A stretch of DNA of 64,000 nucleotides from Escherichia coli (lineage in GTDB: Bacteria > Pseudomonadota > Gammaproteobacteria > Enterobacterales > Enterobacteriaceae). Of the stretch, positions 54,476-63,818 are shown piece by piece. The stretch is from NCBI RefSeq assembly GCF_001677475.2, contig NZ_CP015229.1; one strand, written 5' to 3'. The position numbers were made by a program, and so were the translations under genes. Each line of letters starts with the position of its first letter. Positions within the stretch are counted from its first letter, which is position 1. The notes below the pieces were generated by a model. That model did no database searches. It was not told the origin of the DNA and worked only from the letters and a program-made list of their open reading frames with translations.

Positions 54476-54551
54476 GGCCCCTTAGCTCAGTGGTTAGAGC
54501 AGGCGACTCATAATCGCTTGGTCGCTGGTTCAAGTCCAGCAGGGGCCACCA
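54476..54551 (+). tRNA. ileX: tRNA-Ile2 (anticodon CAU, lysidine-modified), ileX-type
   Basis: 76-nt cloverleaf GGCCCCTTAGCTCAGTGGTTAGAGCAGGCGACTCATAATCGC...GGGGCCACCA with CAT anticodon and encoded CCA; differs from both Met tRNAs. Confidence 0.85.
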
Positions 54552-54765
54552 GATTTCAATGAATTACAGATGTATCCAAACTATCTTGCTTTACCAGGAT
54601 ACTTATAGGATACCTCTGAGAAGTATTAACAAGTAAGAATTGGCTCATGCCTACAGAACAGTTGGGTCGTAGCAGCCGTTCACCTGCGAACAAGAAAGTG
54701 CTACGGGTCTGAACTTTTGCCCCCAACTCTCCAAGAGACCGGCAAAAACCCTGACGGAGGTATCA

Positions 54766-54909
54766 ATGGATACTTTAAGAAAGGGCTCAGACCTGCTGTC
54801 TGCACGTGTGATTGCCGTTACAGGTTTAATCGCAGCACTTGGCAATTTAGGTCTATGCCCAATAGCCGTAGTGCTAGTATGTATAGCTTTAGTTATCATG
54901 CTGAAGTAA
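54766..54909 (+). CDS. Candidate 47-aa small membrane peptide (MDTLRKGSDLLSARVIAVTGLIAALGNLGLCPIAVVLVCIALVIMLK)
   Basis: ATG preceded by GGAGG at correct spacing; followed by GGCCCAGCtttcGCTGGGCC hairpin; rare codons (TTA, AGA, CTA, ATA); below the ORF-track size cutoff. Confidence 0.35.
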   Translation: MDTLRKGSDLLSARVIAVTGLIAALGNLGLCPIAVVLVCIALVIMLK

Positions 54910-55652
54910 TGACAGCGTAACAAGCTCGGCCCAGCTTTCGCTGGGCCTCCCATTTCTACCTCCCAAAATCTATTAGAAACAATAAGCCACTAAAGAAAGA
55001 GCTTTTGCTGGCTACAATACTCACATACAAACAATTTTTATTTTTCGCGGGCGTAAAAAAACGATGGGGCTGGCAGTCCGGAAGACGTCAGGGTACAGAG
55101 ATTTGTACCCGCCTCTCCCTGTGCATGAGCACAATAAGTAACCGAAGGCGGAATTCCGCCCTCGGTACTCACATATGAGAAACGATATTTCTTCCACCGA
55201 TACCCTTTATTTGGGTATCGCGAGTAAGCCCCAAAATCTGGGTGTTACTCTTACTACCCAAACTACGGGTAGTTTCCGTAGTTTCATGGTCGAGTTGCAG
55301 ATCTGCAACTCACCCACCAGCCAACGCAATTTTGCGTTATCGGGAATATCAGCAAGTTACCGCCGCAGTCGTTCCGGCTTCTTCCACTGGTAAGTATTTT
55401 TCGCGCTCTCCCTCCGTTGTTGAGAACGGCGACGGTATGCCAGCAACTCAAGGACTCTGATCCGTATGTCGCGCATATCCACGCCGTTAAGCTCGATACC
55501 GTCACGGCGCATCATCTCTGCCACCACACGCGCGTAATTTTCGGCTATCACGCTGTCCGGCTGCGTGGCCTCCTATTTGCTTGATGGTTGTTTGATTCCG
55601 GTAACGCGGCGGATTAATCCCAGCAATTCAGATTCTGTCATAGTGCGCTACG

Positions 55653-55992
55653 TTACTTGTCTTTATTCGGCTGCAACTTATCCGGCACATTTCCGGTAGT
55701 TTCCATCAGGTAATCAGCCAGTATCTGTGGGAGGTTGTCGGCAACTCTGGCACTGGCATTACAGGCTTTAACCACTTCCCTTTTAAGCCCATCCAGCATA
55801 GCGGGGGTAATGTGTGGGAAGCTCCTTTGCATAGTAAGCGGGAGGCTGTCCATGATTGATGAAATCTGACTCGCCAGTTTTGAAAGCGCGTACATGCAAA
55901 ACTCTGTATCAATCACGTCACCGCGATCGCGCTCGTTTTTAAGTTCCTGCGCCTCCGCCTGTGCTGTCAGTAATCTGATCCTGACTCGTAAG
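55653..55992 (-). pseudogene. Nu1-like small terminase subunit, C-terminal fragment (gene split by IS insertion)
   Basis: Translation ...LLTAQAEAQELKNERDRGDVIDTEFCMYALSKLASQISSIMDSLPLTMQRSF... resembles the lambda Nu1 C-terminal half; frame is open up to the IS boundary. Confidence 0.7.
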
Positions 55993-56085
55993 TATGAGAC
56001 GACAATAACTCAGTCCGCCTGGCGCCGATTATTCTGGCCGGTTTTGTAACCTGAGTGTCATTTACATGATCCAACAGGAAATGGC

Positions 56086-57465
56086 GTGACGCTCAATACT
56101 TCTCAGGTCAGTTACTATATGACTCAGCGTAAGAAAGGTATAACTCAGCATATCTCGGCCATGAAGGCTGGTATCTCAGTCCGTTCTGGTCGTCGGATCG
56201 AAAAAGGAGAGTGGGCAAAAAACAGTGTTCGGCACTGGCGCACACGCAAAGATCCTCTGGAAGCTGTGTGGGACAGCATGCTTGTTCCTCTGTTGAAAGA
56301 GAGGCCGGCTCTGACACCAACAACTCTACTGGAGATGCTACAGGATAAATATCCCGGCCAGTACCCCAACAGCCTTCGAAGAACAATGCAACGGCGGGTT
56401 CGCGAATGGAAACTACAGTATGGTACAGAGCAGGAGGTCATGTTCCGCCAGCAACATCAGCCCGGCCTGCGAGGCCTGTCGGACTTTACTGAACTGAAAG
56501 GTGTAGTTGTCACCATCGCCGGTAAGTTGTTGGCGCATAAGTTGTATCACTTCCGTCTGGAATGGAGCCACTGGAGCTGGATGCGGGTTGTTCTGGGTGG
56601 TGAGAGCTTCTCTGCTCTGGCTGAAGGCCTGCAGGAAGCCCTCGGACAACTGGGCGGAGTGCCGGTAGAACATAAAACGGACAGCCTGAGGGCAGCATGG
56701 AAACAACAGGGCGAAGATGGACGCCGCGAGCTGACTGAGCGTTATGCTACTCTCTGTCAGCACTACGGAATGCAGGGCGTACACAATAATGCCGGTCGGG
56801 GCCACGAAAATGGCTCGGTTGAAAGTGCCCACGGACATCTGAAAAGGCGTATCTGTCAGGCGCTGATACTGCGGGGCAGTAACGACTTCAGCACCATAGA
56901 AGAATATCAGGCCTTCATCACTCAGCAGGTTATGCGGCACAACCGTAACAATCAGGATCTGGTCAAGGAAGAACGTCTTCATCTGAAACCGCTGCCGCTT
57001 CGTCGCAGTGCTGACTATGATGAGCTGACTGTGAGGGTTAGTCGCAGCAGTACCATCAATGTGAAGCACGTCGTCTACAGCGTACCTTCCCGGCTTGTAG
57101 GTCAACTGTTACGGGTCAGGTTATGGGACGATCGTCTGAGCTGTTACGTTGGCAGCAGCGAGGTCATGAGCTGCCCTCGCGTCAGACCAGAAAAAGGGAA
57201 GACGCGGGCCCGTCGTATCGACTTCCGACATGTGATCGACAGTCTGGCAAAAAAGCCCGGTGCGTTCTGCCATGCAACGCTGAGAAATGACATCCTGCCG
57301 GACGATGAATGGCGGAGGCTGTGGCGTCGCTTATGTAATCATCTGGAGCCCGATATGGCAGGAAGGCTGATGGTACATGCCGGGAAACGTGGATCTGCAC
57401 CGGCTGATGCGCTTCCTGGGTATAAAAGAAAAGGCGTTGCCGGTAGTCAATGTGATACAGCATAA
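56086..57465 (+). CDS. istA: IS21-family transposase IstA
   Basis: 459-aa ORF (GTG 56086; ATG at 56119 also possible); N-terminal HTH-like region and DDE-type catalytic core typical of IstA. Confidence 0.8.
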   Translation: MTLNTSQVSYYMTQRKKGITQHISAMKAGISVRSGRRIEKGEWAKNSVRHWRTRKDPLEAVWDSMLVPLLKERPALTPTTLLEMLQDKYPGQYPNSLRRTMQRRVREWKLQYGTEQEVMFRQQHQPGLRGLSDFTELKGVVVTIAGKLLAHKLYHFRLEWSHWSWMRVVLGGESFSALAEGLQEALGQLGGVPVEHKTDSLRAAWKQQGEDGRRELTERYATLCQHYGMQGVHNNAGRGHENGSVESAHGHLKRRICQALILRGSNDFSTIEEYQAFITQQVMRHNRNNQDLVKEERLHLKPLPLRRSADYDELTVRVSRSSTINVKHVVYSVPSRLVGQLLRVRLWDDRLSCYVGSSEVMSCPRVRPEKGKTRARRIDFRHVIDSLAKKPGAFCHATLRNDILPDDEWRRLWRRLCNHLEPDMAGRLMVHAGKRGSAPADALPGYKRKGVAGSQCDTA

Positions 57466-57510
57466 CCTGAGCAGTTATGAGCAACTACTGCGTGGCAAGG
57501 GAGGTTCGCA

Positions 57511-58266
57511 GTGAGCAATATCCATCACCTTGAACATAGCCTGCGTAAACTACGCCTGACACGAGTTGGAGCTGAATGGCACGCTCTGGAAAAACGAGCG
57601 CTGGCAGAAGGCTGGACACCATCGCGCTATCTTCTGACGCTATGCAATGAAGAACTCCTGTGGCGCGAGAGTGAAAAACTGCGTCGTTATAAAAAGGAGG
57701 CCCGGTTGCCAGTTGCCAAAACGCTGAGCGAATACGACTTCAGTCAGGTGCCGGAACTGAATGGAGCTCAGTTCCGGCAACTCTGTGAAACGACAGACTG
57801 GGTTGATGCAGGAGAAAACGTTCTGCTGTTCGGAGCCAGCGGGTTGGGGAAAAGCCATCTGGCGGCAGCGATCGTGGATGGCGTAGTAGGTCAGGGCTAC
57901 CGGGCCCGGTTCTACAGCGCAGGAGAGCTGTTGCAGGAACTACGTAAAGCCAGAGCTCAGTTGAAACTGAATGAGCTGCTACTGAAACTGGATCGCTACC
58001 GGGTGATAGTGGTGGATGATCTTGGCTATGTCAAACGCGATAGTGCCGAAACGGGTGTGCTGTTCGAGTTAATAGCGCATCGCTATGAACGTGGGAGCCT
58101 GGTGATAACCAGTAACCATCCGTTCAGCATGTGGGGCAGCATCTTCGTGGATGAGACTATGGCGGTGGCTGCGGCAGACAGGCTGATCCATCACGGATAT
58201 ATGTTCGAACTGAAAGGGGAAAGCTACAGGAAAAAGACAGCGAAGGCAGTAACAAGCGCGACTTGA
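57511..58266 (+). CDS. istB: IS21-family helper ATPase IstB
   Basis: 251 aa; Walker A FGASGLGKSHLA and Walker B VIVVDDLGY; GTG start with GGAGG RBS. Confidence 0.85.
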   Translation: MSNIHHLEHSLRKLRLTRVGAEWHALEKRALAEGWTPSRYLLTLCNEELLWRESEKLRRYKKEARLPVAKTLSEYDFSQVPELNGAQFRQLCETTDWVDAGENVLLFGASGLGKSHLAAAIVDGVVGQGYRARFYSAGELLQELRKARAQLKLNELLLKLDRYRVIVVDDLGYVKRDSAETGVLFELIAHRYERGSLVITSNHPFSMWGSIFVDETMAVAAADRLIHHGYMFELKGESYRKKTAKAVTSAT

Positions 58267-58331
58267 TGTCGCCCTGAAGGGTGCGGCCAGTATAGTTGGC
58301 GCGAGTCGGCAAAACTAGTTGACGTCTAATA

Positions 58332-58544
58332 TCGTAAGAGTTCATCATCATCAATCTCGCCTTTGTCGTTTGTAAGCTGGCTAATTGCATTGTTAACCCT
58401 ATTGTCTATCACGCTGGCAACATCATAAAACGCCTCACGGCCTTTACGTTCAACGGGAGTCACTCCCCACTTGTCGAATGCTGTAGCACTTACCCGGCAG
58501 CTTTGCGCCATGGTTTTTTTGTTCATCAGGTGCGATTTCATCAA
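58332..58544 (-). pseudogene. Nu1-like small terminase subunit, N-terminal fragment (gene split by IS insertion)
   Basis: MNKKTMAQSCRVSATAFDKWGVTPVERKGREAFYDVASVI... resembles lambda Nu1 N-terminal winged-helix region; frame runs into the IS and stops two codons inside it. Confidence 0.7.
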
Positions 58545-58639: not shown

Positions 58640-58725
58640 CCCCTGAAAAAGCTCATAAATAGCGAAAAACCGCGAGGTCGCCGCCCCGTAACGGGTCCAT
58701 ATGCCGGAAAGGACCCGTAAAAAAA
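58640..58725 (-). other. Lambda-type cos site (cosQ-cosN-cosB); cosN 12-nt cohesive-end sequence at 58675-58686
   Basis: Reverse strand reads ACGGGTCCTTTCCGGCATATGGACCCGTTACG-GGGCGGCGACCT-CGCGGTTTTTCGCTATTTATGAGC, near-identical to the lambda cos region as recalled; lies immediately upstream of the Nu1-like gene as in lambda. Confidence 0.7.
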
Positions 58726-58741
58726 GCCGGATTTCTCCGGC
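58719..58741 (-). terminator. Rho-independent terminator after the capsid operon
   Basis: Reverse strand stem GGCCGGAGAAATCCGGC followed by TTTTTTT. Confidence 0.5.
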
Positions 58742-58747
58742 CTTGTC

Positions 58748-59161
58748 TCAGATGGTTTTCAGTATGCGATCGATGTCGCCATCATCGCCCGGGTTTCTGC
58801 CAGCGTATGCCATACCAGCTGATACGGCTTTCGGGCTGTGCATGTCCATAAAGTTTTCAAAGGCTGCGGTAAGCTCTGGTGCAACCTTCTGGCGTTCCTG
58901 CTCTATGGTCATGCTAAGGATGCTTTTAGCCGTACCAACATCGATACAAGGCACGTTTGCCATTGCACGTAACAGCGGCTGATAGTCGCCAGATTCATCA
59001 AGCGCCATAATCGCATCAGAGCGCGGCTTGTCCTTCTCTTCCAGGCTGTTAAGTTGATATACGGCCTCGTAGGTTGATAAACCTCTGTCAGCCATTGCCC
59101 GCGCTTCGGCCTTAAATTTACTCGCCAGCGGTAGCGTCATGATGCTTTCATTCGTTGCCAT
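58748..59161 (-). CDS. Hypothetical 137-aa protein, last gene of the capsid operon
   Basis: Tightly packed 12 nt downstream of the D-like gene; no family recognised. Confidence 0.5.
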   Translation of the reverse strand: MATNESIMTLPLASKFKAEARAMADRGLSTYEAVYQLNSLEEKDKPRSDAIMALDESGDYQPLLRAMANVPCIDVGTAKSILSMTIEQERQKVAPELTAAFENFMDMHSPKAVSAGMAYAGRNPGDDGDIDRILKTI

Positions 59162-59173
59162 CGTTCCCTCTGC

Positions 59174-59509
59174 TTATCGGGCCAGTGGCTGAACGGATAC
59201 GCCAGAACCCGCAAAGGCGGCGCATTTTTTCGCATCGGTGTCGACGCTCTCAGGCCAGTTAACGGCGGCGATATTAAATATCCCCGTCTTATAGCACTGT
59301 GCTGATTTCTGCGTCGACGTGTCAACGGGGTACGAGGTCAGATAAACAGCCTTGCCAGATTCCTGACCATCCCACGGCTTAAACTCGCCATTTTCCGCCA
59401 GCATCAGCGGGGTAAATTCCTGAATAACTCCAGCATCAGCGGCAAAATGTACCAGCGTCGTGGATACCTGCTGACTGCCTGCAAATAACTCAATGTATGG
59501 AGTGTTCAT
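59174..59509 (-). CDS. Head decoration protein, lambda gpD-like
   Basis: 111 aa; shared blocks with lambda D as recalled (TPLML, WDG, YKxGxF, WPE, KKxAAFAG); size matches (lambda D 110 aa). Confidence 0.7.
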   Translation of the reverse strand: MNTPYIELFAGSQQVSTTLVHFAADAGVIQEFTPLMLAENGEFKPWDGQESGKAVYLTSYPVDTSTQKSAQCYKTGIFNIAAVNWPESVDTDAKKCAAFAGSGVSVQPLAR

Positions 59510-59520
59510 AGAATCCCCCG

Positions 59521-60576
59521 TTAAGCAATTTTGACGGTAACAAATTTGCGAATATCTGCCGGTACCGGCTGCGGTGCGCTGTGCGTCTGCACGTACTCAA
59601 TCGCCGGATCGCCATCCTCAATCCAGTTTTTCGGGTAGTACATGTTTTGCGTTGCGCCAGTTCTTACCGCTTCCGGATCCATAATCGCACCATAGGCCAC
59701 CAGCCCTTTATTGTTAGTGTTGCCCAGGACAAGCAAATCAGGCTCAAGGAAATATTTTTCGGTGCCATCGCTGTCGGTGTATTTGCCGGAATAGACGATA
59801 AGGGCCAGATCACCCAGATAGCCTTTAAAGCTCACCACTTCGCCCAGGTTTTTACAGGCCAGCTCTGCGGCGGATTCTGAACCACGGGAAAGATCGTACA
59901 GTTCACGGAATTTTTTAAAGCTGCGTAACGTGCGCCATACCTCAGCGCCCATAATCATGACGTTGGCGGGGCAACCAGCCTGATCGGTGTATAGTTCGAT
60001 GTCATAGATTGGATCGTGTGTTTCCTTATCTGCCTCAGACCACTTTTTGCCCGATCCCTGCGTAATGATGTTTTTAGTCGGGATTTTCCAGTCGATTTCG
60101 TATCTATTTATTCCTTCGCCCTCAATGATGTTTTTTCCGGTCGTGACCGCATTCACCGCCAGCCATTCTATGCGAGCTTTAATAGCGTTTACCTGGCGGC
60201 GCATGTTGCCAGTAATCAGGCGCATACGGCGATAAGTTGGATCGTTAAGCTGTGCCGGATCTTCTCCAGCCATGCGCATGATGGTTTTTGATGGATCGAT
60301 TTCGTGTTTTGGTTTCATATAGCCAGGGCGGATAGTGCTTGTTTCGTACCCTTTATCGCGCTGAACCTGACTCCCCACCATAGGCGAACAAAAAGCCGAC
60401 ATGGTGACTTCTTCAATATCCAGGGTATCTAACATGATGTCCTGCGTGTTGAAGGTTGCCACGTTCGGGAAAAACAGCGACGTAAACAGCGGACTGAATT
60501 TAAATTCCGAAATATCCCCACGATTCAGGTACGCGAAAAGCTGGTTAGTGTTAAGTGCCGTTGCTTTGCCTGTCAT
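59521..60576 (-). CDS. Major capsid protein, lambda gpE-like
   Basis: 351 aa; blocks FKFSPLFTSLFF and PGYMKPKHEIDP, YPKNWIEDGDPA, SAPQP match lambda E motifs (FKFDPLFLRLFF, PGYVKPKHEVNP, YPKNWVTTGDPA, SAPLM) as recalled; similar length. Confidence 0.85.
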   Translation of the reverse strand: MTGKATALNTNQLFAYLNRGDISEFKFSPLFTSLFFPNVATFNTQDIMLDTLDIEEVTMSAFCSPMVGSQVQRDKGYETSTIRPGYMKPKHEIDPSKTIMRMAGEDPAQLNDPTYRRMRLITGNMRRQVNAIKARIEWLAVNAVTTGKNIIEGEGINRYEIDWKIPTKNIITQGSGKKWSEADKETHDPIYDIELYTDQAGCPANVMIMGAEVWRTLRSFKKFRELYDLSRGSESAAELACKNLGEVVSFKGYLGDLALIVYSGKYTDSDGTEKYFLEPDLLVLGNTNNKGLVAYGAIMDPEAVRTGATQNMYYPKNWIEDGDPAIEYVQTHSAPQPVPADIRKFVTVKIA

Positions 60577-60782
60577 TATTCACCCCCATGAGTCTGATTC
60601 ATGCCCAGCGCCGCGCGTAAATAGGCGCGTACCTGCCAGCCTGTTGACGGCTCAACCATCGCCAGCGGCTCAAGTCCTGCCGCAATGCCTGCTTTTACGT
60701 TCTGCTGGTGGCGTTCCTTGAGCGCCTCCACGATGTCTGGGCTTATGTAAACTGTCACCCCGCCTTTTTTCTCTTCTGCCAT
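60576..60782 (-). CDS. Hypothetical 68-aa protein, first gene of the capsid operon, translationally coupled to the capsid gene
   Basis: ORF 60576-60815 from GTG; better start at internal ATG (MAEEKKGG) with AGAGGA RBS; stop TAA overlaps capsid ATG by 1 nt. Confidence 0.45.
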   Translation of the reverse strand: MAEEKKGGVTVYISPDIVEALKERHQQNVKAGIAAGLEPLAMVEPSTGWQVRAYLRAALGMNQTHGGE

Positions 60783-60820
60783 AGTCGGAAATTCCTCTTT
60801 GACGTTAAAAATCACAACTG

Positions 60821-60852
60821 GATGTTCATCCAGTTGTGATTATAATCATGAT
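60821..60852. promoter_or_regulatory. Perfect 14-bp-arm palindrome upstream of the capsid operon (candidate operator; contains CTG-N10-CAG)
   Basis: AATCACAACTGGATG-TTCA-TCCAGTTGTGATT about 40-70 bp upstream of the operon start. Confidence 0.4.
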
Positions 60853-60993
60853 TTCATTTTACGCAATAATGTTGAGTTGTGTTGCAAATTGTGAAATGAT
60901 TTCCGGCAACAGTAGTCACCATACTGTTAGATAAAAGCCTCATATGCAAAAGCCCGATAAGACCCTCTGACCTTATCGGGCTTTTTTTGGGGC

Positions 60994-61018
60994 ATAAAAA
61001 AGCCGGACTTCTCCGGCT
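60994..61018 (-). terminator. Rho-independent terminator after the SSB-like gene
   Basis: Reverse strand AGCCGGAGAAGTCCGGCT followed by TTTTTT; adjacent second hairpin (60952-60988) with T-run on the + strand. Confidence 0.5.
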
Positions 61019-61033
61019 TCTGTTACTCGTTGC

Positions 61034-61456
61034 TTAAAACGGTATGTTATCCCCGTACGGATCATCGTTACCCGCCTGTTGTTTTGCCCTGTTCAGTGCG
61101 TCAGTAGCCTGCCCTTGCTGGCCTTTTTTGCCGCCCGGTCGCGCCGTTCTCGCACTGATTACGCTGTCTGCGATAACCTGCCAGCCCTGCCGCGTTTCGC
61201 CGTTCTGGCCTGTCCACTGGCTTACCTGCATGTTACCCGCCACGCTCACCAGTTCGCCTTTGTGGTGTTTTGCCAGTGCGTCGGCCTGTCTGCCAAACGC
61301 CAGGACGGATAACCACATCGTCGCCGTTCCGTCATCTGCCTGGCTGCACGGAAGGGGGACCGCCATACTAGCCATCGTCATTTGTGTACCCTTGCTGGTG
61401 GTCTTTAACTGCGGGTCAGCCACCAGCCGCCCGTAAGCCGCTATCTGTGCTGTCAT
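61034..61456 (-). CDS. SSB-like single-stranded-DNA-binding protein (divergent OB fold with conserved acidic C-terminal tail)
   Basis: 140 aa; Gly/Gln-rich linker and C-terminus DDPYGDNIPF resembling the SSB tail (DFDDDIPF). Confidence 0.55.
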   Translation of the reverse strand: MTAQIAAYGRLVADPQLKTTSKGTQMTMASMAVPLPCSQADDGTATMWLSVLAFGRQADALAKHHKGELVSVAGNMQVSQWTGQNGETRQGWQVIADSVISARTARPGGKKGQQGQATDALNRAKQQAGNDDPYGDNIPF

Positions 61457-61698
61457 GCTGTCTGCTCTCCGGTTTTAACGTTGATGGTTGTCACCTGTTC
61501 CGCTTCGGCAATCTCCCGTTCTGTCAGCGTGGCAAAGTTTGCAGCTGCCGTTGTCATGAATGCGCTAATCAGTTCGGGATGTGCTTTCGCATATCCTTCC
61601 CCGGCGTTGCGGTCGATGATTTTTATCGACACCCTTAACCAGTGTTCCGTCAAATCAAGGGCGTGCGATTGTGATTTTTTTGTGTGCTTCGCTGTCAT
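61453..61698 (-). CDS. Hypothetical 81-aa protein, 4-nt overlap with the SSB-like gene
   Basis: ORF begins just downstream of the iteron array and overlaps the SSB-like start; no family recognised. Confidence 0.4.
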   Translation of the reverse strand: MTAKHTKKSQSHALDLTEHWLRVSIKIIDRNAGEGYAKAHPELISAFMTTAAANFATLTEREIAEAEQVTTINVKTGEQTA

Positions 61699-61740
61699 AG
61701 GCTTTATCTCACAGCAGTAAATTAAAATTTTTGCGTTTTA

Positions 61741-61980
61741 ACCCTTCACCTGTTCACCTTTTGATATTTTCCATTTAAATTCATACTGTTAAGGGGTGAA
61801 CAGTTTCACAAAAACTATTCACCAACTGTTCACCACTGTTCACCCTTGAAGCTCAATAAACAACCAAAAAGGTGAACAGTGAATAGTTTGGTGAATAGTT
61901 CATAAATAACTGTTCACCCTATAATATACTGATATAAAAGATATTTATGACAGGGTGAACAGTGGTGAACAGTTATTCCA
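61741..61980. repeat. Iteron array: at least 8 perfect copies of TGTTCACC (both orientations) plus degenerate copies; candidate replication origin
   Basis: Direct reading: CCTGTTCACC, GGGGTGAACAGT, ACTGTTCACCACTGTTCACCC, AGGTGAACAGT, ACTGTTCACCC, GGGTGAACAGTGGTGAACAGT in AT-rich context between the helicase and SSB genes. Confidence 0.75.
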
Positions 61981-61985
61981 TAAGT

Positions 61986-63818
61986 TTAATTTTTGCTATC
62001 GTCATTAGTGACTGATACACATGATGGCATCCAGTCTTCTGATTCCTCCGTCAGTGTCACGTTTGAACGTAAACCGTGCTTCGTTTTCCGTTTTATATAC
62101 TCCCTGCCATATTCCGCCATTGCCCCAGGCATATCTTTACCGAAGCGCGTCAGTGTTACAGGTTTACCAAACCCATGAGCCCTCATATAAGCCAGATAGG
62201 CATGATAGAGATACCTGCGCGGGCTGAATGGCACAATTTCAGCATTACCCACTAACAGGCCATCACACATTACCGACGCCATGAGATAGCCGCAGAAGTC
62301 CACCAGCGAATCCCCCTCTCGCTTTATCGCCAGTGCTTCTTCAGATTTCTGCTGCTCATATAACAGGCGTCTGGCTTCGTCCTGGTCAGCAAACCTTGTA
62401 AGCAGATGGCGAATCACTACCGCCAGCTCACCTTCTATTTTTTCCGCCAGCATCGGATCGCGTTCGTTCTCCGGTACAACTTCCGAAAAATTGAATATCA
62501 CCCGACGACGTGAGATCCCCCCGCTGCGGTCACTGAATGACATGGCGTTATTGTTAACCGCCAGCACTACTGCCGGAATACGCGTTGAGTAGGGGGCTTT
62601 GTGTTTCGGGTCAATTGCCACCTTGTCACCGCCTGTAATGGCCTTAATTCCTGCCCCATCACCAGCGTAGCGGGTCATATCCGGCATGATAATCAGCGAA
62701 AAGCCAACCACTAACGCGCGTTCCCTTGCATCTTCCAGCGCCTTCATGCTTGCCGATACTGTGTTGGCCTTACCCGCCAGCATGGTGCAAATCTCCGCCA
62801 TCACGCTTTTACCACTTCCCCCTGGACCTGTTACCTCAATGAATAACTGCCAGTCGTACCGGTTCGCCAGCACCATGAATAATGCAGCCAGTACGCGATC
62901 CGCCTTGCGGTCATTCTCAGCCACCGAACGGCGTAACCACTTCCAGAAATTCGGCGCATGTGTTGCCAGCGTTTCCCCCTCTGCTGGTGGGCTGAAAGGT
63001 AATTCACTGGCAATTAACAACCAGTCGTTTTTGTTATGCTCCCGAAAATTACCTGTTCTGGTATCAAATACCCCGTTACTGAATCCAATCAGGTTACGGG
63101 CTGTATTCCCCATTACAGGCAAACTTAACTTCATGGTATCGACCGCCGATTTAATGGCGTTCTGCGAATAGCTGATCTCCGCATCAATGAAAATCTGCGC
63201 CATAGCACGCTGTAACTCTTTATCCTGAACCGGCTCCCATACAACGCCGTTGTAATGGTGAACAGTGTCAGAGTCAGCATGAATCGCCAGTTCACCGCCA
63301 TAATGTGCCAGGAGAACTTCGCCGCGTTGACTTGCTCCCATCTGGTTAAGCGCCAGTGATGAAGCGTTATCGTCTTTTACCCGCTCTTTTTTCTTTACAG
63401 GCAGTTCAACTACCTTTTTCTTTTCCGCCAGCTCTGCCCGTTCACGTTCCAGATATTCGCGCCAGTTCTCCCGTTTCTGGCTGTGCATTCCTTCAGGATA
63501 ATAATCAGCATCCCTGACACCTGCCGCTGCCAGTTTCTGCCCGATGGTATTAACAAGCCCCGGACGCAATAACCCCGCCTGGTAGAGACGCACACGATAG
63601 CGTCCGTCCGGTACGATTTGCAGGTTGTCCAGTTCGGCAAGTTGTTGCTCTCCAAGCCAGACAGGAGGCACGTTATCGCCAGCCAGTCGCCCGTCCTGTT
63701 CCTGCCACTGCTTCGCATGTGCCCACGCATCACTACCCGCAAAAATGATGACTTCCGTCATTTTGTCACGTGGCTGGTGTTTTAAATTTGGCGCTTTTTT
63801 CATTTCTGCTCTCTCCAC
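61986..63818 (-). CDS. Replication initiator/helicase, SF3 (D5-like) family, P4 alpha-type
   Basis: 610 aa; Walker A GPGGSGKS in a D5/SF3-helicase-like core; sits next to the iteron array; start may be at a downstream Met. Confidence 0.75.
   Translation of the reverse strand: MERAEMKKAPNLKHQPRDKMTEVIIFAGSDAWAHAKQWQEQDGRLAGDNVPPVWLGEQQLAELDNLQIVPDGRYRVRLYQAGLLRPGLVNTIGQKLAAAGVRDADYYPEGMHSQKRENWREYLERERAELAEKKKVVELPVKKKERVKDDNASSLALNQMGASQRGEVLLAHYGGELAIHADSDTVHHYNGVVWEPVQDKELQRAMAQIFIDAEISYSQNAIKSAVDTMKLSLPVMGNTARNLIGFSNGVFDTRTGNFREHNKNDWLLIASELPFSPPAEGETLATHAPNFWKWLRRSVAENDRKADRVLAALFMVLANRYDWQLFIEVTGPGGSGKSVMAEICTMLAGKANTVSASMKALEDARERALVVGFSLIIMPDMTRYAGDGAGIKAITGGDKVAIDPKHKAPYSTRIPAVVLAVNNNAMSFSDRSGGISRRRVIFNFSEVVPENERDPMLAEKIEGELAVVIRHLLTRFADQDEARRLLYEQQKSEEALAIKREGDSLVDFCGYLMASVMCDGLLVGNAEIVPFSPRRYLYHAYLAYMRAHGFGKPVTLTRFGKDMPGAMAEYGREYIKRKTKHGLRSNVTLTEESEDWMPSCVSVTNDDSKN

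Follow-up and report, generated by a model that had tools for sequence, protein, structure and literature searches.

The 64,000-nucleotide window of Escherichia coli contig NZ_CP015229.1 contains an island whose genes resemble those of the phage lambda major capsid protein gpE and head decoration protein gpD, which raises the question of what kind of element carries this pair and what the pair contributes to it. It is near certain that the two genes are part of an EcCICFT073-type Gram-negative phage-inducible chromosomal island (PICI) integrated at tRNA ileX, where they lie in its late "capsid" operon, and finding them is a rediscovery, as this well-described E. coli phage-satellite family is already known to have both. 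The explanation that we favour for the whole, and consider probable though well short of assured, combines this late operon with an auxiliary role in building shells on the portal and protease of a helper phage.

The 351-aa ORF (59521..60576, minus strand), the orthologue of c1499, encodes an HK97-fold, gpE-type major capsid protein, as evidenced by a full-length match to lambda gpE (43% identity over 342 aa, E 9e-94) and matches to Pfam Phage_cap_E (PF03864; 3.6e-52, model positions 14-328 of 329), phrog_29 (5e-110) and the chains of the lambda capsid cryo-EM structure (2e-82); the crystal structure PDB 3BQW, moreover, is of a protein nearly identical to it in sequence. The 111-aa ORF (59174..59509, minus strand), orthologous to c1500, matched lambda gpD (37% identity over 76 aa, E 5e-14), phrog_49 "head decoration" (2e-27) and the solved structures of phage 21 SHP (1TD0, 3e-14) and gpD (1C5E, 1e-9), placing it in the gpD/SHP head decoration family (PF02924), the Pfam entry recorded for its orthologues. 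Both ORFs are intact and preceded by Shine-Dalgarno-like sequences; dN/dS is 0.09-0.14 in the 351-aa ORF and 0.06-0.18 in the 111-aa ORF. The resemblance to gpE and gpD put forward by the sequence-only reading is thus borne out, as is the order, with E ahead of D where lambda has D ahead of E.

The island extends beyond the end of the window, and its remaining part was read from a complete, 99.9% identical twin island (L001). The EcCICFT073-type identity follows from gene-for-gene synteny with EcCICFT073 and from 94, 95 and 95% identity of the capsid, decoration and 137-aa proteins, respectively, and the PICI identity from the integrase, AlpA-like HTH, P4-type primase, 11.2-kb length and terminal tRNA repeats of the twin. 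The gene tRNA-Ile (ileX, CAT anticodon; 54476..54551, plus strand), identified by ARAGORN and the Rfam tRNA family and annotated likewise in the genome of the twin, marks the right end of the island, where it serves as the attachment site on the chromosome; besides tRNA-Ile, no Rfam family was matched across the island. In the twin, a partial, 65-nt tRNA repeat occurs at both ends, 11.2 kb apart, and accompanies a tyrosine integrase matching phrog_1 (9e-40); a 69-aa AlpA-like HTH protein matches phrog_66 "excisionase and transcriptional regulator" (4.6e-9), and Pfam Phage_AlpA is present in relatives. A single strand carries every island gene. The replication module (61034..63818, minus strand) comprises an SSB gene (61034-61456), a gene for an 81-aa protein (61453-61698) and a P4/D5-type primase gene (61986-63818), whose 610-aa product matches phrog_864 DNA primase (6e-192) and the P4-family primase C-terminal domain, giving the island a replicase of its own; genes for DUF4222, Icd-like, AlpA-like HTH and integrase proteins lie beyond the module in the twin. 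The twin also falls within the small size of PICIs (~10-15 kb), and a cosN the same as lambda's with a Nu1-type terS (interrupted here) represents the packaging hijack of the Gram-negative type. The gene list of the complete 11.2-kb twin includes no lysis, tail, portal, protease or large-terminase genes, in agreement with the earlier description of a satellite that supplies shell and decoration proteins of its own but neither portal nor protease. A P4-like satellite is not indicated, as no island protein gave a PHROG or NCBIfam match to P4 sid, psu or delta; the genes in common with P4 are only the primase, Icd-like and AlpA-like ones.

The capsid operon consists of four tightly packed genes, encoding a 68-aa protein, the gpE-type capsid protein, the gpD/SHP-type decoration protein and a truncated Nu3-type scaffold. 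It is preceded by a conserved leader (60805..60905, minus strand; fold -20.3 kcal/mol, z -5.2) with promoter-like hexamers, one of which is TATAAT (60844-60839). The leader also contains a perfect palindrome (60840-60811; arms of 14 bp) with a T-run after it, which might serve as operator or as leader terminator. Conservation of the leader extends to islands with capsid proteins of no more than 63-68% identity, and a search of 50,697 phage records gave no counterpart, leaving a Q-type late promoter unsupported. Two terminator-like hairpins after ssb (60948..61018, minus strand; -16 kcal/mol and z -4.9 for the first) set the replication module apart from the operon, and an intrinsic terminator-like hairpin (58719..58741, minus strand; GCCGGA-GAAA-TCCGGC then T7; RNA fold -19.1 kcal/mol, z -3.5) closes it, so that terminator-like hairpins flank the operon on both sides. 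The first gene (60576..60782, minus strand; phrog_3255), whose stop codon overlaps the ATG of the capsid gene, encodes a conserved protein of unassigned function with a predicted shape of an extended segment followed by two helices; it gave no significant Pfam or PDB fold match, the only Pfam hint being a non-significant one to BrnA (ribbon-helix-helix). Its assignment as lambda gpW was rejected despite the equal length, there being no similarity.

The fourth gene (58748..59161, minus strand), which encodes a 137-aa protein and is the orthologue of EcCICFT073 c1501 (95% identical and likewise listed as 137 aa), had been taken for an unknown small gene in an island lacking a scaffold. It is instead a truncated Nu3/gp6-type scaffold homologue and a predicted scaffold, an assignment based on sequence profiles only: hhalign aligned it with a lambdoid scaffold at 98.3% probability (E 1.8e-14; 119 columns, scaffold positions 68-188 of 204), BLASTP gave E values of 9e-10 and 3e-10, the latter with the phage 21 scaffold, its C-terminal end matched phrog_53 (1.3e-8), and its family profile matched the C-terminal ends of scaffold and protease. 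The likeness covers the C-terminal ~60% of Nu3/gp6 and takes in both the FxxFMxxHSP motif and the tail; the N-terminal ~65 residues of the scaffold are missing. The AF2 model is all-helical, and neither this model nor that of the 68-aa protein gave a significant fold match in BFVD or PDB. An assignment as FI was rejected for want of similarity, as was the RefSeq name "phage head-tail connector protein" given to some c1501 orthologues, for which NCBIfam, Pfam and PHROGs give no support. The view that the island has no other head genes therefore stands for the portal, protease and large terminase and fails for the scaffold homologue, cosN and Nu1-type terS.

Downstream of the operon, cosN (GGGCGGCGACCT; 58675..58686, minus strand) is the same as lambda's, with flanks conserved in lambda and EcCICFT073 and a divergent cosB side; cos function has been demonstrated for the EcCICFT073 site (PMC6092414). 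The terS gene, a Nu1-type small terminase gene by phrog_57/1790 and by BLAST against the intact twin, is split on the minus strand into a 5' fragment (58332..58544) and a 3' fragment (55653..55992) by an ISEc10-like IS21-family element (istA, istB; 55993..58331, plus strand), which has the 7-bp duplication TCGTAAG at its flanks and lacks ~71 bp relative to intact copies. Removal of the element restores a 180-aa ORF, and the intact TerS shows 36% full-length identity to lambda Nu1. The last island gene (phrog_1561; 55357..55641, minus strand), encoding 93 aa in intact relatives, has an in-frame stop after codon 22. Because the insertion inactivates terS and the last gene carries this nonsense codon, the island copy here is probably impaired in packaging; its capsid genes are still intact.

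Of 5426 complete E. coli genomes, 597 (~11%) carry the capsid allele. No capsid protein of a sequenced phage is at least 60% identical to that of the island, which shares only 43-47% identity with helper capsid proteins, and the satellite capsid proteins form a separate clade (98% bootstrap) with members in Escherichia, Salmonella, Edwardsiella, Serratia, Kluyvera, Kosakonia and Superficieibacter, in which the order is always E then D. In one-genome-per-species scans, a single-protein query returned nothing and an alignment query only three usable loci, and the synteny of relatives was for this reason drawn from exact-protein look-ups. Two observations count against the shell-building role. 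Of four satellite lineages examined, two are without the scaffold-like gene: L010 has no such gene, and the L013/L016/L018 class has an AlpA-like gene at that position. One relative lies within a P2-like prophage, which has an unrelated capsid system. The capsid strategy is also not unusual, contrary to what had been supposed, with a capsid gene in 21 of 29 reference Gram-negative PICIs (PMC10111431).

Among known systems, EcCICFT073 (c1498-c1503) shares with the island the gene order from the primase to the island end, the lambda-type cosN and the integrase/AlpA/primase backbone. It is integrated beside phoQ, whereas the present island lies at tRNA ileX; it has rppA where this island has the Nu1-type terS, the two showing no similarity; its PerC-like gene is missing here; and the IS-split terS and the premature stop in the last gene distinguish this copy. 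Helper-embedded PICIs (11capE type, PMC10111431) belong to the same satellite capsid clade and share the E-then-D order (L013-L015), but their capsid proteins are only 56% identical to the island's, their third gene is AlpA-like rather than scaffold-like, and they are inserted inside helper late genes. Capsid-forming PICIs (cf-PICIs, e.g., EcCIEDL933) have the same int, alpA and rep backbone and also encode their own capsid protein, whereas here there are, besides terS, genes only for the shell, the decoration protein and the scaffold fragment; the portal, prohead protease, large terminase and head-tail connectors of cf-PICIs are all absent from the complete twin. Compared with the lambda/phage 21 head module (Nu1-A-W-B-C/Nu3-D-E), homologues of Nu1, the Nu3 C-terminal part, D and E are present at 36-47% identity together with an identical cosN, but they run in a reversed and permuted order (E, D, Nu3', cos, Nu1), and the island has no A, W, B, C protease domain, FI or FII.

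On the favoured reading, a lambdoid cos helper phage would induce the island, which would excise and replicate by its own primase, and the island TerS (RppA in EcCICFT073) would direct the helper large terminase to the island cos site. The operon products could then form shells on the helper portal, with the helper protease, in which some or all subunits come from the satellite, and its decoration protein would stabilise these shells. In favour of this reading are the homology of the capsid, decoration and 137-aa proteins to lambdoid head proteins, the lambda-type cosN and TerS, the purifying selection, the satellite capsid clade and the layout of the operon. Helper-induced replication and high-frequency transfer have been shown experimentally for EcCICFT073 only (PMC6092414), and the shell-assembly step on helper portal and protease is a tentative proposal that may well fail. 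The contribution of the operon is probably auxiliary, its benefit being quantitative or helper-specific, since under laboratory conditions the capsid protein of the helper is enough; mixed lattices of satellite and helper subunits may fail to form, because the two capsid proteins share so little identity.

Published experiments bear on this role, as Fillol-Salom et al. (2018, 2019) deleted or overexpressed the EcCICFT073 orthologues, c1499-c1501 (PMC6092414, PMC6739421). Deletion of c1499 or c1500 did not clearly change transfer; for c1499, Table 1 gives values about 2-fold lower in all four recipients, a hint in favour of the role, and, counting against it, the standard marked EcCICFT073 (c1499::cat) transfers at up to 1e6 per ml (PMC6092414). 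The idea that the "c1501::tetA" marker disrupted the scaffold gene and confounded the deletion tests was dropped, as the Table S6 primers place the cassette immediately after the c1501 stop; mapped in this way, the tetA-marked EcCICFT073 has intact capsid-operon ORFs.

A rather unlikely alternative is that the four-gene operon is a self-sufficient shell kit, which with the right natural helpers would form satellite-specific capsids, possibly of smaller T number, on a stolen portal. If true, the operon would be intermediate, in evolution and in mechanism, between the classical PICIs that steal whole capsids and the cf-PICIs that steal tails alone, and the published null phenotype would reflect the helpers (lambda, phi80, phage 4) and assays chosen.

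Redirection of capsid size, in which the satellite capsid protein and/or the truncated scaffold would yield small capsids for an 11-kb genome with natural helpers other than lambda, appears improbable. SaPI1 CpmB is reportedly a scaffold mimic that shares the C-terminus of the helper scaffold, and the 137-aa protein, as a C-terminal scaffold part, would fit such alternative-scaffold logic. SaPIbov5 Ccm, a satellite-encoded homologue of the helper capsid protein and in this like the island's capsid gene, is a precedent for altered shell geometry (PMC8569155), and the Pasteurella PICI PmCI172, which has a capsid homologue, produces small capsids (PMC6092414). By analogy, Ccm and CpmB might be the nearest models for the mode of action of the operon; they are, however, unrelated in sequence, belong to Gram-positive helpers, and both resize capsids and interfere, whereas the E. 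coli orthologues did neither with lambda. The capsid resizing suggested by the sequence-only reading was not supported for these 94-95% identical orthologues, since the DNA packaged with a lambda helper and intact operon ORFs was all phage-sized, with no small capsids seen (PMC6092414), and no PICI-monomer band has been observed in CFT073 in published work.

It is improbable to the same degree that the genes serve as a back-up copy, permitting packaging when helper E or D is interrupted, defective or repressed, and so widening the usable helpers to include cryptic prophages. This idea was raised in PMC10111431, and relatives do sit in PICIs inserted in the helper E gene (L014, L015) and portal gene (L017); yet an embedded satellite must excise before packaging, thereby restoring E, most carriers, including the present island, occupy chromosomal sites, and the published knockout was tolerated.

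Poisoning of helper capsid assembly by satellite subunits, likewise suggested at first, is very unlikely and, for lambda and phi80, largely refuted. Interference is a common satellite theme and the truncated scaffold could compete with Nu3, but deletion of rppA (c1503) alone fully restored lambda plaques and the other post-ori genes, overexpressed one at a time, left lambda uninhibited (PMC6739421); furthermore, deletion of c1499 or c1500 did not relieve lambda interference (PMC6092414), and PADLOC defence models match no operon protein. Equally remote is a decaying, now functionless remnant of an ancestral capsid-forming satellite, a reading to which the lack of a laboratory phenotype and the decay in terS and the last gene would lend themselves and which is contradicted by the selection data, namely dN/dS of about 0.1 at dS of about 0.3, full-length ORFs in all 597 genomes with this allele, and an E-D pair kept through divergence to 51% identity in at least seven genera.

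The finding itself changes little: a 2018 publication already described homologues of capsid and decoration proteins in E. coli PICIs, and the PDB contains a near-identical capsid protein. The puzzle is that an intact pair present in about 11% of complete E. coli genomes, with diverged versions in more, is under strong purifying selection and belongs to a lineage confined to satellites, yet has no known laboratory phenotype. With c1501 as a truncated Nu3-type scaffold, the satellite would carry all shell-forming components but the portal and protease, and the conserved leader, with its promoter-like hexamers and palindrome, could tie expression of the operon to the helper; together, the scaffold assignment and the leader make the puzzle of the capsid genes more testable.

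The 351-aa ORF at 59521-60576 (minus strand) aligned with lambda gpE over its full length (43% identity, E 9e-94) and matched Pfam Phage_cap_E (3.6e-52), phrog_29 (5e-110), and PDB 3BQW ('putative capsid protein of prophage') across all 351 residues (E 5.6e-228). The 111-aa ORF at 59174-59509 (minus strand) shared 37% identity with lambda gpD across 76 residues (E 5e-14) and matched phrog_49 'head decoration' (2e-27) as well as the solved structures of both phage 21 SHP and lambda gpD. The resemblance of the two ORFs to gpE and gpD is far beyond chance, and both reading frames are intact. The sequence-only reading was thus right in calling them lambda E-like and D-like, and in describing their order as reversed (E then D here, D then E in lambda). 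The feature is, however, already known. EcCICFT073, the model Gram-negative phage-inducible chromosomal island (PICI), was found in the CFT073 genome (L005:9931-20655), and the capsid, decoration, and 137-aa proteins of the window shared 94%, 95%, and 95% identity with its c1499, c1500, and c1501, respectively. The paper on helper-embedded PICIs (PMC10111431) counted 21 carriers of a capsid gene among 29 reference Gram-negative PICIs, and the 2019 review by Dokland noted that EcCICFT073 has a capsid homologue yet uses full-size capsids. Considering the published EcCICFT073 genes, the later papers, and PDB 3BQW, the capsid and decoration finding is therefore a rediscovery; what is new here is modest, comprising the scaffold assignment of c1501, the anatomy of the operon and its leader, and a quantified satellite-specific capsid lineage under purifying selection. 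In addition, a 463-aa protein from a 3.2-kb Logan contig (P0030) contained both Phage_cap_E and HDPD domains and looks like a capsid-decoration fusion of satellite type, which may represent a sequencing error or true read-through.

The window is E. coli chromosome with dnaG, rpoD, mug, and then the tRNA gene ileX (54476-54551), immediately beyond which the island begins, its genes lying throughout on the minus strand. The complete element was visible in strain TUM1886, whose twin island (L001) is 99.9% identical and spans 11.2 kb between two partial tRNA copies. The twin encodes, in order, integrase, a 238-aa unknown protein, an AlpA-like HTH protein, small genes, Icd-like and DUF4222 proteins, a P4/D5-type primase, an 81-aa protein, SSB, a 68-aa protein, capsid, decoration, the 137-aa protein, small terminase, and a 93-aa protein, and no portal, protease domain, large terminase, or connectors were detected in it. 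This layout is that of a Gram-negative PICI; the element displays every sequence-testable feature of that class and does not display those defining cf-PICIs or P4-like satellites. Within the right-end region (54476-55035), a GGATAC motif is doubled at 54594-54620, and a hydrophobic ORF of 47 aa without a family match lies at 54766-54909. Relative to TUM1886, about 480 bp beyond the tRNA were non-homologous and the following 600 bp were 88.5% identical, compared with 99.9% for the remainder of the island; moreover, the tRNA 3' half is the 'chromosomal' version in the window and an island-derived variant in TUM1886. The right end of the island is therefore mosaic.

Directly downstream of the decoration gene, the 137-aa orthologue of c1501 (58748-59161, minus strand) matched the C-terminal end of phrog_53, a head-maturation-protease family (~1e-8), as did the corresponding protein of a diverged island (L011), which is 31% identical to it (~1e-8). 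Compared with 1.84 billion proteins, its family profile retrieved proteins of Nu3 length and one S49 prohead protease, matched at its C-terminal end; these hits in turn matched 'head scaffolding protein' and 'capsid assembly protein' families. BLASTP against the protease/scaffold of the resident CFT073 lambdoid prophage and the phage 21 scaffold yielded 36-37% identity (E 2e-10 to 3e-10), and profile-profile comparison with seven lambdoid scaffolds aligned residues 2-121 with scaffold positions 68-188 of 204 (hhalign probability 98.3%, E 1.8e-14). The AF2 model contained only helices, with a floppy tail and a short terminal helix, and fold searches with it added no support. Based on the phrog_53, profile, BLASTP, and profile-profile matches, c1501 is, judged by homology, a stand-alone Nu3/gp6-type scaffold truncated N-terminally. 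No paper stating this was found, and Fillol-Salom et al. 2018 (PMC6092414) list c1501 in their supplement as 137 aa with no annotation. RefSeq calls many orthologues 'phage head-tail connector protein' (e.g., WP_105467928.1; L002:9416-9829), a name supported by no profile library, the homology being to Nu3/gp6 scaffolds instead.

The lambda cohesive-end sequence GGGCGGCGACCT was located immediately beyond the operon terminator, its flanks conserved with lambda and EcCICFT073 and its cosB side divergent. The cos site is followed by terS, whose intact product shows 36% identity in a full-length alignment with lambda Nu1, whereas in EcCICFT073 the unrelated rppA occupies this slot. By sequence relationship, these island proteins belong to the gpE, gpD/SHP, Nu3, and Nu1 families. 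The sequence-only reading had described the gene at 58748-59161 as unknown and had proposed no other head genes, a view overturned by the scaffold homologue, the lambda cosN sequence, and the Nu1-type terS; its statement that portal, protease, and scaffold were missing stands for the portal and protease domain and fails for the scaffold. In the window, terS is split by an ISEc10-like IS21-family element (55993-58331, 2339 bp) with a 7-bp duplication (TCGTAAG), and in-silico excision regained a 180-aa terS ORF. The IS may itself be defective, because intact ISEc10 copies are ~71 bp longer and have an istA of about 499 aa, against 459 aa here. Furthermore, the last island gene (55357-55641, minus strand; phrog_1561), encoding 93 aa in TUM1886, is interrupted by an in-frame stop after codon 22, so that decay shows twice at this island end while the capsid operon is intact. 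The window island is one more copy of a known feature, partly disabled.

As read from the sequence, ssb is followed by two terminator-like hairpins and a leader of ~110 bp with promoter-like hexamers, a perfect palindrome with 14-bp arms, and a T-run. The leader (60805-60905, minus strand), upstream of the 68-aa gene, contains TATAAT and was retained in islands with capsid proteins just 63-68% identical; the palindrome and T-run occurred in four of five aligned islands. No counterpart was detected among phage sequences, nor any Rfam family. One possibility is that a dimeric regulator binds the palindrome as its operator; alternatively, the palindrome may act as a leader terminator coupling the operon to the helper. 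The stop codon of the 68-aa gene overlaps the capsid ATG. Gaps of 11-12 bp lie between the capsid, decoration, and scaffold-like genes, each of which has a Shine-Dalgarno-like sequence, and a strong terminator-like hairpin ends the operon.

Among 50,697 phage genomes, none encoded a capsid protein at least 60% identical, the best matches being Gifsy-1 and phage 21-like phages (46-47%). Homologues with 51-93% identity, where context was inspected, all resided in PICI-type islands of Escherichia, Salmonella, Edwardsiella, Serratia, Kosakonia, Kluyvera, and Superficieibacter, invariably in capsid-decoration order; the scaffold-like gene was missing from two of four satellite lineages examined. 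A neighbour-joining tree recovered a satellite capsid clade (98% bootstrap) sister to a lambdoid phage clade (100%). Pairwise dN/dS was 0.09-0.14 for capsid and 0.06-0.18 for decoration (dS 0.1-0.36). Of 5426 complete E. coli genomes, 597 carried the full-length allele, Nissle 1917 and O157:H7 strains among them. The purifying dN/dS, satellite clade, and full-length spread indicate that the genes are kept by selection and are not relics.

E. coli strain A33 (NZ_CP028742.1) harbored the capsid-decoration segment at five sites, indicating that several related PICIs share one chromosome. In Edwardsiella (L017, 786-10394), a PICI interrupts the portal gene of a lambdoid prophage, and its E-D pair (capsid 62% identical to that of the window) is followed a few kb downstream by the D and E genes of the helper. 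One relative, in Salmonella (L016, GCA_005980655.1, 3292-12978), is a PICI with lambda-E-type capsid and decoration genes that sits within a P2-like prophage, surrounded by tail genes for baseplate J, tail fibre, tube, gpU, and gpD. The capsid system of that helper has no relation to the one of lambda, an oddity if satellite shell proteins have to co-assemble with helper head proteins.

Whereas protein identity, cos/TerS logic, and selection are established, the task of the shell proteins is inferred, and the most economical reading is that they serve as an auxiliary shell kit. A lambdoid cos helper would induce the satellite, whose capsid protein and truncated scaffold would assemble on the helper portal; helper protease would mature the shell, satellite decoration protein would stabilize it, and satellite TerS, or RppA with helper TerS, would steer the helper large terminase to the satellite cos site. 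Deletion of c1499 or c1500 was judged by the authors to be without effect on resident-prophage transfer, and the marked island c1499::cat was transferred by phi80 at up to 1e6 per ml (PMC6092414). These published data restrict the shell-kit role to a non-essential one, although c1499 deletion reduced transfer to 0.48-0.60 of the parent in four of four recipients (Table 1). The lineages without the scaffold-like gene and the relative within a P2-like prophage count as caveats. Concerns that the 'c1501::tetA' marker used for these deletions breaks operon frames were ruled out, the cassette sitting just past the c1501 stop codon.

By analogy with Ccm and CpmB, the satellite subunits might redirect capsid size with helpers other than lambda, an unlikely alternative given that lambda-packaged EcCICFT073 DNA was entirely phage-sized (PMC6092414); with this helper, the resized capsids envisaged in the sequence-only reading were likewise not supported. 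A back-up role, when the PICI is embedded in its helper or the helper is defective, is similarly doubtful. Poisoning of the helper by satellite subunits, also raised there, is essentially refuted for lambda, as c1499 or c1500 deletion did not restore lambda plaques (PMC6092414), whereas among post-ori genes individually expressed under PBAD only c1503 (RppA) inhibited lambda and its deletion fully restored plaques (Fillol-Salom et al. 2019, PMC6739421). Decay without function is contradicted by the selection data.
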